A stretch of DNA of 64,000 bases from Mustelus asterias (taxonomy: Eukaryota): NCBI RefSeq assembly GCF_964213995.1, contig NW_027590120.1, forward strand, positions 124,001 through 188,000. The letters run 5' to 3'. Positions within the stretch are counted from its first letter, which is position 1. Each line of letters opens with the position of its first letter. The notes beneath the pieces are model-generated. The model made no database searches. It was not told where the DNA came from and saw nothing but the letters and a program-made list of their open reading frames with translations. Shown one piece after another: positions 33,546 to 48,349 of the stretch. Both the position numbers and the translations under genes were made by a program.

Positions 33546-33634
33546 CCGCTCACTGGGACCGGAAACCAACAGTCCGGGAGCTGGTTTGTTCACTGAGTTC
33601 CTGACATAACCATTTCCTCCATATGACCAGAAGG

Positions 33635-33680
33635 ATGAGGTCGGCGATTTCTCTCAGTTTGTTGCTGGCTTTCTTATCCA
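33635..33680 (+). CDS. IGHV: IgM VH leader exon
   Basis: MRSAISLSLLLAFLS + A|GTGAGT (phase 1); an in-frame upstream ATG at 33623. Confidence 0.93.
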
Positions 33681-33804
33681 GTGAGTAGTTTTTATTGTCC
33701 AAGACTCTCACTGTTAGCCACTGTTAACCAATCTCTGAAATGTTCCAGATTCAGCAATCATTTCGCCAGGATTAATCTTTGGGGATTTTGATATATTTTT
33801 ACAG

Positions 33805-34106
33805 GAGTCCAGTCGCAGGTTGTGTTGACTCAGCCAGAGGTAGCGACCGGGCGTCCCGGAGGCTCCCTGAGACTGACCTGTAAAACCAGTGGGTTCAATC
33901 TTGACAGCGACTGGATGAACTGGATCCGAAAGATTCCCGGACAGGGGTTGGACTGGCTCCTTGACTACACAAGTTCATCGAGCAACAATTACTCCCCAGG
34001 GATTCAGTATCGATTTACAGCGTCCAAAGACCTTTCAAGTAATACCTTCGCTTTGGACATGACTGGTCTGACGAACGAAGACACCGCCATCTATTACTGT
34101 ACATAT
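33805..34106 (+). CDS. IGHV: IgM VH exon (unrearranged)
   Basis: ag|[13 protein letters not shown]...[11 protein letters not shown]...[13 protein letters not shown]...RFTASKD...[10 protein letters not shown]; both Cys and the Trp are present. Confidence 0.96.
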
Positions 34107-34145
34107 CCCAGCGATAGGGACCAGGGCTGCCCCCGGACAAGAACA
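34107..34145 (+). other. VH 23-RSS with a mutated heptamer
   Basis: CCCAGCG + 23 nt spacer + ACAAGAACA. Confidence 0.85.
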
Positions 34146-34497
34146 GTTCGAGAAGGAATTTAACAACTTCCAACACAACCTGAAATTCAGTACCTCTTGT
34201 ACATGTAATATTAACTGCAATGATCTGAACCAGACAACTAGCTGATTCTTACCAAACTAACACAGCGAAAATGTAACGGTAAAACGTAACAGACAAACAT
34301 AGAAAACGGGGTTGGACTGTGGCTGTGGTTATATTTACTATTGACACTTTCAACACTTCCAGACCTGCAAATAATGCTTATTTTAATATTTCTGACTTTG
34401 TGATCGATAAACTGCTGCCTAACTGATAAATGAGATCAGAAATAACGTTCTATTTGAAGTGAATAGTGAGCGGCAGGACTGAACAGAGAGTGAGTGC

Positions 34498-34576
34498 AGT
34501 TTTTGTGCGGGTGTGTGTCACTGTGATATGTTGGGTCGAACTGGCAGGCACAGCTGTTACCGTCAATACAAAAACC
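34498..34576 (+). other. IGHD: Single DH segment (34526-34548) flanked by 12-RSS on both sides
   Basis: AGTTTTTGT-12-CACTGTG | ATATGTTGGGTCGAACTGGCAGG | CACAGCT-12-ACAAAAACC. Confidence 0.92.
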
Positions 34577-34893
34577 CCTCTCAGCACTTACTGATTGAGG
34601 CTGGATCAGTGTCACTTCTATAATCCAACTATAATTTCAGTATAGTACTCTCGATGATCAGCATTGCCCGAATGGCAAGAATTAAAATGCAAACTCGATG
34701 ATAATTGTTCGATTATCAGTTGTTGTTTTCAATAACATGTTCATGTGTTACTCTGTGAAATATAAATCATTAGGGTCATTTATGAAGAGCGAAAGGCATC
34801 CACAAATACAAATATAATTTTTTGAAGCTTCATTGATTTACTTGCCTTGTGCTTTGTGAATATTTAAAATAATGGTCTATTGTGTTTAGAGCA

Positions 34894-34932
34894 TGTTAAT
34901 GTATGGTGCAGCCCAGAGAATGTAACACAGTG
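34894..34932 (+). other. JH 23-RSS with a degenerate nonamer
   Basis: TGTTAATGT-23-CACAGTG directly before JH. Confidence 0.85.
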
Positions 34933-34979
34933 ACACTTCCCATCCTGGGGACAAGGGACCACGGTGACGGTGACTGCAG
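34933..34979 (+). CDS. IGHJ: JH segment
   Basis: HFPSWGQGTTVTVTA G|GTAAG, containing the WGxG motif. Confidence 0.95.
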
Positions 34980-37900
34980 GTAAGAACCGTGCACTTATTG
35001 AGCAACTGCTTCACTTGAGCCTTTGTTTTATTTTATTTCCTATTTTAGTAATTCATTAACTAATTGAAATGTGGGTTTGGTGGATTTTTTATTGAGATAT
35101 TTTGCAATGGTCCATGTGATTTTGCTGAAAGGGTTGAAAAGTTCTGCTGCTTCTTGACAATAGGTGCTGCTAAGTTATTTAATCTCTGGTTGCTGTGATT
35201 TGGTGTTTATCTGTTGAGGGCATTGTGTGGCTGGGTTACTGTAAATACCGAACTTCTGTTAAACAGTTATGCGTTTCTGCAATGTTTAAGCTCGGTGACA
35301 TCAAATAGCTGCGAGTTGTACCATCTACTGCACAAGTGTTTGAAATGTAACCCAATATTAACAAAATATGTTAAAATTGCTGTATTAATTTAGTGATCAT
35401 GTTCCGTCTGCTCACAAATCTCGTGTTGTTGTGGCATATTTCTGTCCATTTAATTATTAATTGGGTTTGTCATTAACAGATTGGCTGGATTTTATATTGA
35501 GATTCTCTGTCAATTTTACATTTGGTTCTGTTGAAAGTATTTGTGGAATTGAGCTGCTTCTGCATGAAATGGGGTTCAGTCCCTCAGTGATGTGTTTTTT
35601 TGTGGTGAGGTGGTTGTGTGTCTGGGTGACTTTGAATAAGTAAAATGTGTGAAATTATTTGGTGTTTCTGTATTGCTTCTGCATTGTTTACACTCGGTGA
35701 CACTGAGCAGTTACACTCTTTGTGATTGAATACAAACATTCAACACGTTTGAAACTGCTTGACGCATGATTGCAGGCAGAACTCAGGCAAGATTTATTGC
35801 AGTTTTTAAAAAAAATCTCAAATGATAATTCCAGATTAAACTAAGGCACGGTTTACGCCGTTCGTTCAGAACATAGTTTGTCACTGAATTCACAATTTGT
35901 GATACCTGCAATGTTTAATTTCGGTGGCATCTGATGGCTGCAGCTTTTCCCATCGAAATGTTTAAATATGTTTGATGTCTCTTTGAAATATGATCCAATA
36001 TGAATAAAATGTGATAAAGTTTCAATATTAATTTGTTGGACATATTCCACCTCTTCACAATATTATTGTTATCATTCCAGATTGCTGTTTAGTTTAATAA
36101 TTTGGTGACGAGCTCTTCTGCTGGATTCCGTATTGAGATCTTCGTGCGATGTTACATTTATTTCTGTTGAATGGATAATTGAGCTGCTTCTCCATAAAAC
36201 GGGGTTCATTCCCTCGGTGATGTGTTTTAGTATTTTTCTGCTGAGGAGATTGTGTATCTGGGTGACTTAAAATGTTTATAATTTGTGGAATGGTTTGGAG
36301 TTTCGGTATTGCTTCTGCATTGTTTAAACTGGTTGACACTGCGTGGTGCCACGTCTTCTGGTTCAATGCATTTGAAAATACTTTAGCACGATTGTCGGGG
36401 AAAAAACAGGCAGGTTTCGGAAAAAATGAAATAAAGATACACTTTTATAAATGTAAATGATGATTGCAGATTAAAATACAGCATGGCTGAAAAAAAATCA
36501 TTCAGAATATACTTCATTGCTACAATCAATACTTAATTAACAAGTTTGAAGTTTGTAGAGTGAAATTAATATAATTGAAACAATTGCTTCGCGGTAATGT
36601 ACTCCTTATTCACCAAAAATATTTGATGTTGATATCATTAATCCCCTTTCACAACTATGCTGTGCATTGCACACAATTAACATAAACGAGAAAGGTTCTA
36701 GGCTGAAAACATTTTGTGATTATTTCTGAAACTATTTCAATGAGTACAGGCTGATTCTACATCAACGTTTAGTTCAACAAGATATTTTGAAATAATCGTT
36801 TTGCGCTAATTAAGTTTACCGTCACTTAAATAGGAGTTTTACATTGCAGTTTGGTAATGTATGTATCCTGTTATTGCATTTCTTTTCGGTTGCAGGCGCA
36901 GCCAAATTATTGCTTTAAAGTAATATGTAGATAGATAATTAATCACTACTCTAATCTTAAACAGTTTTCTGAGAGCTGAAGTTCGCTAGCATGAAGTAAT
37001 TGTTCATTTGGTTGTTTTTGAATTGTGGTAAGGTGTCGACAGGTGCTAGCCAGACAACGGCAAGTAAATGCTTGAAATTCACACTGATTAGTTTAATTAC
37101 GGAAGTTTTATATTAGTTCTGCTCCTAGCAATAACATTCTGTCTTCCAATACTGCTGCAGACAGAATAAAATGATAGGAAGAACAAATGTCAGCACAGAC
37201 GAATTTACTCAATCTGAAACTTCTGTTTAATTATTATTAAATATTAAACTGAAGAACAAAATCTCGACTTATTTTTCATCATGTCTCAGTCTTGCAGAGG
37301 ATTTGAATAAATTGTCCTCATTGTGTTTTGTACTGTTTTATGTGTAACTTTTTCAATTAAACAATATGATCAACAATTTAATTACAGCAATGATCTGAAT
37401 GATTAAATCAAGGAAGCAATTTTATTGATCACAAACAGCCATGCTTTACAGTATACTTGGGCCTTGAAGTATGCATTTTTAATCAATTTGTGGGTAAATA
37501 GAAGGCTTTTCGTAAAAGACAAAAATCAAATAATAAAATGTGAATAGATGAAGGTAAAATTATTAAAGATGTCTGAACGTTTCCATCCAGTAATTTGATG
37601 TTAATTGTTTAACACTGTTTAAGATTTCGTTGAAACCCAATTACTTAACAACGTTCTATGCAGAAGGGAGTTTTGAATTATTGAGAACTGTTTTTTATTA
37701 TATAAAACAAATCAGCTGACAGGAGAAAGAACTGGCAATTAATAATAAGTTATATATAATATTCGTGCTAATTAATTCAACAAAAATGACCTCCAACAAT
37801 CAAATTTAACGGTTTTAGAGAATATTTAATTGTATGGAAAATGAATTCAGAAAACAATACATTACTCAGCTGTAATCTGCTCTATAAGGTGTTTTGCTTC

Positions 37901-44104: not shown

Positions 44105-44404
44105 CGACACCGTCTCCGCTCGTTCTCCACAACCTGGTCTCCTCCTGTCAGCAACACAACACCGACGGCACCGTCACCTACGGCTGCTTGGCGATGGACT
44201 ACTTCCCAGAAATCACCAGGCTGACCTGGAAGAAAGATGGACAGCCGATCACCACTGGAGTTAAGACTTACCCATCAATGAGAAACACAAAGGGAACCTA
44301 CACCCTAAGCAGCCAATTAACCATCACCGAGTCAGAGGGAGCATGCAGCAACATCAACTGTGAGGTTCGACACAGCGGTTCAGATAAGAGCATTGAAATG
44401 CAAT
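44105..44404 (+). CDS. IGHM: IgM CH1 exon
   Basis: ag|[16 protein letters not shown]...[10 protein letters not shown]...WKKDG...YTLSSQL...[17 protein letters not shown]|GTAAGT. Confidence 0.95.
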
Positions 44405-44611: not shown

Positions 44612-44926
44612 GTCCTCGAGATGACATCGCACCAACCGTTATCCTCACCGTGAGTTCCAGTGAAGAAATCACAAGAAGCAAATTTGCAACCGTTATCTGT
44701 TCAATTATCGATTTCTTTCCAAAGTCAATGACGGTGAAGTGGCTGAAGAATGGACAACCCATGGATTCAGGAATTGTCACCTCTCCCGCCTGGAATGCGA
44801 ATGGGAACTTCTCGGCGAGCAGTGGGCTGACAGTCTCCGCTGGAGAATGGTTCAGCAAAGCAGTCTATACCTGCCAGGTCACTCATCAAGGCCTCCTCCA
44901 AAGTCGAAACATCACTGGATCTCTGG
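44612..44926 (+). CDS. IGHM: IgM CH2 exon
   Basis: ag|[15 protein letters not shown]...[10 protein letters not shown]...WLKNG...YTCQVTHQG...GSL G|GTAAG. Confidence 0.95.
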
Positions 44927-45604: not shown

Positions 45605-45913
45605 ATTCTTACCAGAATGCTGATTCCACCTTGACAATACTGCCACCACCAATTGAACAGGTCTTACTGGAGGCTACTGTAACCTTAACCTGTGTCATAT
45701 CTCATGCTCCTTATGGACTCAACGTGTCCTGGAGCCAAGACAAGAAGGCTTTGAAATCAGAAATTGCTGAAAAGCCTGGAGAGGATCCTTACAGCGTCGT
45801 CAGCAACTTAAACATCTCAACACAAGCCTGGCTGAGTGGGACTGTGTTTGACTGCATTGCGAACCATGAGGATCTGCCGACACCTTTAAGAAAATCCGTC
45901 CACAAGGAAGAAG
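45605..45913 (+). CDS. IGHM: IgM CH3 exon
   Basis: ag|[31 protein letters not shown]...[23 protein letters not shown]|GTGAGT. Confidence 0.95.
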
Positions 45914-47954: not shown

Positions 47955-48349
47955 CAGATCCAAATCCGCGGGAACCGTCCGTTTCTGTCCTCATGCCCTC
48001 CGCAGAAGAAGTCTCCGCTCAAAAAATAGTCTCCCTCTCCTGCTTAGTGAGAGGTTTCTCCCCCCGAGAGATCTTCGTCAAGTGGACCTTCAAAGACAAG
48101 CCGGTGAACCCCGGGAACTACAGTAACACGAAGGTGATGGCGGAGAACGGCAATAGCTCCTTCTTCATGTACAGTCTGTTATCCATTGCAGCGTTGGAGT
48201 GGGCCAGCGGCGCTTCTTACTCCTGTGTGGTGGGACATGAAGCCATCCCCTTGAAGATCATCAACAGAACGGTTGATAAATCCAGCGGTAAACCCAGTTT
48301 TGTGAACATTTCTCTTGCACTGATGGACACCGTTAATTCCTGTCATTGA
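47955..48349 (+). CDS. IGHM: IgM CH4 exon with secretory tailpiece (internal donor at 48287/48288 for the membrane form)
   Basis: [12 protein letters not shown]...[10 protein letters not shown]...[24 protein letters not shown]|GTAAA; tail [19 protein letters not shown] with NIS sequon and penultimate Cys. Confidence 0.96.

Follow-up and report, generated by a model that had tools for sequence, protein, structure and literature searches.

The IgM heavy-chain cluster in the window, by which we mean the whole 64,000-nucleotide stretch analyzed here, carries a single D segment that most likely arose when D1 and D2 were fused by an old RAG-mediated join in a germ cell, and its V is now predicted to join to D weakly or not at all. 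The anatomy of the cluster, the homology of its flanks, its copy number, a joint in a second species and the open exons are observed directly; the involvement of RAG, the order in which the events took place and the loss of cleavage we infer.

The window holds one cluster with the make-up of elasmobranch IgM, comprising one leader and V, a D region with a single D, a J, four C-mu exons with a secretory tail and a transmembrane (TM) exon, and its reading frame is open in all exons. The leader exon (MTRRMRSAISLSLLLAFLS, 33623-33680, plus strand), with a GT donor at 33681, is followed on the same strand by the open VH exon (33805-34106), whose coding end lies 6 nt past the Cys codon. In all 35 other split V segments compared this end lies 9 nt past the cysteine, so that the window V end is 3 nt shorter. 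The adjoining V 23-RSS (34107-34145, plus strand) has the nonamer of its paralogues and the heptamer CCCAGCG, where these have CACAGCG. JH (HFPSWGQGTTVTVTA, 34933-34979, plus strand) ends at a GT donor and is preceded by a 23-RSS on the minus strand (34894-34932), which retains CAC and differs from the nearest paralogues at 8 of 39 positions, two of them in its degenerate nonamer. Further downstream on the plus strand lie the open interiors of the C-mu 1 (44107-44403, codon-aligned), C-mu 2 (44614-44922) and C-mu 3 exons (45607-45912, 77% identical to Triakis scyllium IgM), C-mu 4 with the secretory tail and stop codon (47960-48349) and an open first transmembrane exon (56037-56162). C-mu 3 starts with SYQNADS (45607-45625) and lacks the near-start cysteine found in the paralogues inspected. 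Protein searches returned no close orthologue of the cluster (best identities 73% for V and 77% for C3), a PDB search matched generic VH domains only, and the YVGSNW frame of D was absent from all seven database proteins inspected. One database entry, P0038, named as an Aeromonas veronii protein and encoded on a 742-nt contig, shares 74% identity with C-mu 3 of sharks and probably represents host contamination.

Between V and J, an RSS scan found one D (ATATGTTGGGTCGAACTGGCAGG, 23 nt, 34526-34548) with a 12-RSS on either side, on the minus strand up to 34525 and on the plus strand from 34549, and no further D signal, in agreement with the initial annotation. None of the three forward frames of D (ICWVELA, YVGSNWQ and MLGRTGR) contains a stop codon, also as claimed, and its distances from the end of V (34106) and the start of J (34933) are 419 nt and 384 nt, where about 420 and 385 nt had been given. 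Instead of a D1 with 12/22 signals and a D2 with 12/12 signals, the cluster has one 12/12 D, which the initial annotation had proposed to be the composite left by a D1-D2 join.

This proposal is supported by the homology of the flanks. A genome search with the window cluster yielded at least 73 matches; our cluster counts are lower bounds, because the best 40 of 208 and the best 40 of 234 candidates were scored in the genome DNA searches. Two-D paralogues align to the window query as two pieces, with the break at D. In five of five two-D paralogues tested, the 100 nt upstream of D have 78-80 matches to the sequence upstream of D1 against 48-55 to that upstream of D2, and the 100 nt downstream of D have 66-76 matches to the sequence downstream of D2 against 46-56 to that downstream of D1. 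The homology hence switches from V-D1 to D2-J sequence within D, where the breakpoint had been expected. The signals follow the same pattern: the 5' 12-RSS of D (34498-34525, minus strand) is of D1 type and identical in all 28 positions to those of L005, L047 and L049, and the 3' 12-RSS (34549-34576, plus strand) is of D2 type, with two differences in 28 to the nearest paralogues. The 300-314-nt D1-D2 interval of five two-D paralogues gave no BLAST hit in the window. Simple loss of D1, which would have left this interval as the 5' flank of D, is refuted by the flank matches together with the origin of the two signals. What is gone are the two inner signals and the DNA between them, with breakpoints at the coding ends, as in a germline join.

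These comparisons also bear on whether the cluster might be a primitive one that never had two Ds. In each of the four trees that we computed, the window lineage branches deeply, as such a cluster would, yet its 5' side is specific to D1 and its 3' side to D2, the D contains the end of D1 and the body of D2, and a D2 signal lies 390-410 nt downstream at 37 of the 47 D1-signal matches in the genome. We regard a primitive origin as very unlikely and largely refuted.

D is composed of 11 nt from D1 (34526-34536), two junction bases (CG, 34537-34538) and 10 nt from D2 (34539-34548), all read on the plus strand. From left to right it shows the start of D1 (ATA), three altered bases, the untrimmed 3' end of D1 (TGGGT), CG, and a stretch identical in 8 of 10 positions to the last 10 nt of a paralogous D2; the commonest D1 among the paralogues is ATACAGCAGTGGGT and the D2 type is ATAACTGG..GG. 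A D1-like left and a D2-like right half had already been noticed in the initial annotation, which placed four junctional bases (TCGA) between them. The junction comprises only CG, since the outer T and A belong to D1 and D2. No P bases are seen. As CG has the length of the first two bases of D2, either D2 was trimmed by 2 nt and CG was added as N bases, or the joint was flush and these two bases were substituted later. With a D1 of 11 nt, a flush joint between D1 and D2 would be exactly as long as D, and the composite pattern (3 nt of the D1 start, 5 nt of the D1 3' end and a right-anchored 8/10 match to D2) was reached by 1 of 200,000 shuffles, using measures chosen post hoc, after inspection of the sequence.

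The nearest paralogues are 75-81% identical to the window cluster in the intervals and no close two-D parent is left, so that the pre-join D1 and D2 have to be deduced from diverged relatives; relative to these, the D1 half requires a loss of 3 nt and about three substitutions. Since D1 and D2 share the 5' heptamer and the following ATA in the paralogues, a deletion without RAG is conceivable. The similar 5' signals of D1 and D2 would then have undergone slippage or unequal crossover, with the D1 flank and D2 retained, and the D would have been lengthened later by insertion or mutation. The left half of D can indeed also be aligned to the D2 5' spacer (8/10 in a pairwise alignment), and the short single Ds of L006 and of L031/L040 are readable in this way. 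Such a scenario, however, needs a second event that supplies the 3' end of D1 directly in front of a D2 lacking two bases, and it has to account for the rarity of the composite among the shuffles and for the length of a flush joint. The 3-nt loss in the D1 half and the missing close parent leave it a small probability, and we consider it unlikely.

A join by RAG is suggested by the position of the breakpoints, both of which are within 0-2 nt of the heptamer borders, and by the two inner signals that were removed, which form a 22/12 pair in the paralogues. In this most likely course of events, RAG would have paired the 3' 22-RSS of D1 with the 5' 12-RSS of D2, about 390 nt would have been excised, and the coding ends would have been joined with D1 untrimmed and D2 trimmed by 0-2 nt. 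From then on the cluster would have needed two joins rather than three. The fused cluster would have evolved along a long branch of its own, maintained by purifying selection, and been duplicated later, and in a second species V would have been joined to the fused D, likely via the ATAT common to the end of V and the start of D.

The 23-mer of D occurs in exactly four copies in the genome, all in split V-DD-J clusters, and a search of the assembly for a joined copy with this 23-mer at up to two mismatches gave four matches, all split. The copies form two types, 1-2% apart, which differ by 44 substitutions over about 4.4 kb and are 98% identical in the sequence downstream of this stretch; two of the four sit on a 20-Mb contig, and those on C88 and C143 are so similar that they may not represent separate loci. 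The CDR3-coding ends of the cluster (34101-34106, 34526-34548 and 34933-34945) are all shorter and more altered than the signals next to them, and the substitutions are often adjacent, while the D is identical in all four copies. A fifth copy of the C region (G000:C971:118953-131072) is on a contig that stops before D and V. In a DNA run from another sample of the same species, possibly of the same animal, 33822-34490 is covered without differences.

Three other species sequenced in a single study, here organisms B, C and D, have orthologous pieces of the cluster in their DNA runs. Organism B has one contig in which V (5 differences in 259) is joined to the same D with its 3' flank (34526-34656, 1 difference in 131); organism C has a piece covering 34556-34824 (5 differences in 269) and organism D one covering 33828-34042 (4 differences in 215). 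The D1-D2 fusion is older than the split of the species, and the window D is germline and inherited, not specific to lymphocytes. The initial annotation had kept open a somatic origin, and V-DD-J is a documented intermediate in nurse shark thymocytes, according to the available part of PMC2435157. The assembly moreover includes singleton joints, among them joined TCR-type V-D copies on small contigs. A lymphocyte intermediate caught in the assembly is nevertheless excluded for the window D, because the four copies belong to two diverged types, the 20-Mb contig carries two of these copies, and the identical D is present in organism B; this cross-species contig refutes it, and we assign it a negligible probability.

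The joint in organism B, known from match coordinates and not from the letters of the contig, leads from 34102 to 34526, with four letters that fit either side; it keeps one copy of ATAT and places V in frame with YVGSNWQ. In the window, ATAT is a direct repeat on the plus strand, with the left copy (34103-34106) flush with the V heptamer and the right copy (34526-34529), the first four bases of D, flush with the D heptamer. The last six bases of V are also the reverse complement of the first six of D. Compared to the uninterrupted form in organism B, a 4-bp duplication of ATAT thus borders an RSS-bounded insert, and a microhomology join predicts the same picture.

The repeat could alternatively record a re-splitting, in which a germline VDD join was reopened by its own signal-bounded V-D interval, duplicating ATAT, either through RAG transposition or through repair of a RAG break templated on the joined copy. 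The published signature of re-splitting by transposition is a duplication of 3-5 bp at an RSS-bounded insert (PMC2193153 and the available part of PMC2193156); Lee et al. 2000 looked for it in shark NS4 light chains and found none (PMC2193153). The window fits this signature in that ATAT is flush with both heptamers, V ends 3 nt earlier than all 35 others, an uninterrupted form exists in organism B, and split V/D1 pairs show no overlap in 27 of 28 cases and 2 nt in one, these pairs representing only seven distinct ones. Against a re-splitting, the right border still shows the native ATA start of D1 in its native orientation, the V-D interval has the same age as the lineage (branch length 0.21) and is without a close donor, and joined copies number zero in the assembly. 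The organism B copy differs at only 6 of 390 bases (98.5% identity) and may therefore be a recent join, and V ends in AT in two paralogues, which places ATAT only a few mutations away. That the V-D interval was recently imported from another cluster can be dismissed, since its best non-self identity is 77%. As a microhomology join in the lineage of organism B explains the same data by common events, we take ATAT as likely microhomology and regard re-splitting as improbable. Were it true, RAG would here have re-created a split antigen-receptor gene in nature, as sought by Lee et al. 2000. The flush repeat makes an old question, the re-insertion of RAG-excised DNA in germ cells, testable at one locus.

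In midpoint-rooted trees, the window lineage forms a deep, long branch without a close two-D sister in all four data sets (0.11 changes per column in the leader-intron, 0.21 in the V-D interval, 0.18 in the D-J interval and 0.24 in V; identical rows were merged, and the leader tree was computed without L040, L045 and L046 and the V tree without L040). Against the paralogues, dN/dS is about 0.3-0.85 depending on exon and pair, and below 1 in every row listed, and V has no indels in 291 nt compared to 2-7 per non-coding interval. Judged by these substitution patterns, the lineage appears to have been under purifying selection for most of its history.

The present state of the cluster may be different. 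The initial annotation had described a tetrapod-like V23-12D12-23J arrangement, and this layout holds, but the V heptamer has lost its CAC and is predicted to be cut poorly. It reads CCCAGCG in all four copies, so that one of the four heptamers of the cluster starts with CCC. In mammalian assays, cleavage is almost completely lost when any of the first three bases of the heptamer is altered, as stated in the available parts of PMC2875030 and PMC9723617. Together with the diverged J signal and a stop codon replacing the W of JH in one of the four copies (L004), this heptamer leads us to predict that V-to-D joining is weak or lost. Between the two copy types, both of which have CCC, dN/dS is 0.29-0.43 on 15-16 changes, a deviation that is weakly significant at best (P 0.01-0.05 without correction, or 0.05-0.18 when the synonymous share is set higher). 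Such values would fit awkwardly with a dead cluster and could be explained by use of the C region through inter-cluster switching, or by rare joins via ATAT. Switching between shark Ig clusters is mentioned in the available part of PMC5192425. For 33600-35000, no RNA data set was listed as containing the sequence, a result that has no bearing on expression.

A germline join of the two Ds alone, with V and J still separate, had been expected to be an unusual fossil. The join is supported, but the event is recurrent and not singular, given other single-D types in this genome and the type III cluster of IgNAR. Besides the 37 matches with two-D spacing, the 47 D1-signal matches include four without a D2 signal and six with a single D, namely the four window-type copies, L005 and L006; L031 and L040 make up another single-D type, in which the spacer is 11 nt long. 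The genome contains three single-D types other than that of the window. Single-D clusters also occur in ratfish. The same assembly has VD1-D2-J, V-D1-D2J and VDD-J joins, although singletons among these may be somatic.

Other loci of the genome show rearrangements of their own. L005, L049 and L044 belong to one family, with two Ds in L049, a single D in L005 and a V joined to the L005-type D in L044; the L044-type junction is also found in the run of organism B. The single D of L005 is a trimmed D1 placed directly on the 3' RSS of D2 and is possibly a hybrid joint. In L015, which has two Ds, the coding sequence of D2 repeats the first 11 nt of D1, which suggests conversion by, or recombination with, an L005-like cluster. 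L018/L083, on the minus strand of a 966-kb contig (G000:C138, about 217,300-218,700), is an inter-locus joint between Ig and TCR, either germline or somatic. Here a multicopy TCR-type D-J unit, with a 23-RSS and a J (KLIFGNGTRLIVEP) that we take to be delta-like, provides the D to which an IgM leader-V-23RSS...12RSS-D1 has been joined. The joint has an overlap of 1 nt and no added bases; reading the AC in L018 as P bases was rejected, as these bases belong to the foreign D, which occurs natively with its own 12-RSS at L084, L087 and L088. In L085 and L086, on small contigs, TCR-type V segments are joined to the same D with differing junctions, and the assembly may thus include somatic or recent germline rearrangements.

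On the preferred reading, that of an old germ-cell join by RAG, the window D would be a cross-species fossil of germ-line D-to-D joining. The V-DD-J form in the window and the VDD-J form in organism B would then show the same gene in two states, whose order can be read from a tree. Understood in this way, the window adds incrementally to a phenomenon that has been known since 1988. In horn shark and little skate, IgM clusters are partly germline-joined, as VDD-J, VD1-D2J, VD-J, VD-DJ and VDJ (PMC2193153 and the available part of PMC5192425). The window resembles them in its cluster organization and in a joint ascribed to RAG in germ cells, whereas the forms listed in these sources involve V or J and do not include V-DD-J. 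In the literature searched, which took in PMC2191167 by its abstract and had Kokubu 1988 and Hsu 2016 outside its coverage, we found no germline IgM V-DD-J.

The closest germline parallel is nurse shark IgNAR type III, for which the accessible part of PMC4622739 describes a fusion of D1 and D2. As there, D1 and D2 of the window are fused in the germline, V and J remain separate and one rearrangement fewer is needed. In contrast, IgNAR has three Ds, of which two D units remain, whereas IgM is left here with one 12/12 D. V-DD-J itself is a somatic intermediate of nurse shark IgM, specific to individual cells and not amplified from erythrocytes, as far as the available part of PMC2435157 describes it. 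The window has the same configuration, and the intermediate indicates that D1 and D2 can join first; yet the window form is multicopy, diverged and common to two species, in contrast to the cell-specific one. The spacer arrangement round its single D is also that of tetrapod IgH (V23-12D12-23J, according to the same part of PMC2435157), and a single event would suffice to turn the two-D layout of sharks into this tetrapod layout with one 12/12 D. Unlike the tetrapod translocon, however, the window has one cluster of V, D, J and C, its D arose by fusion, and its V heptamer lacks CAC.
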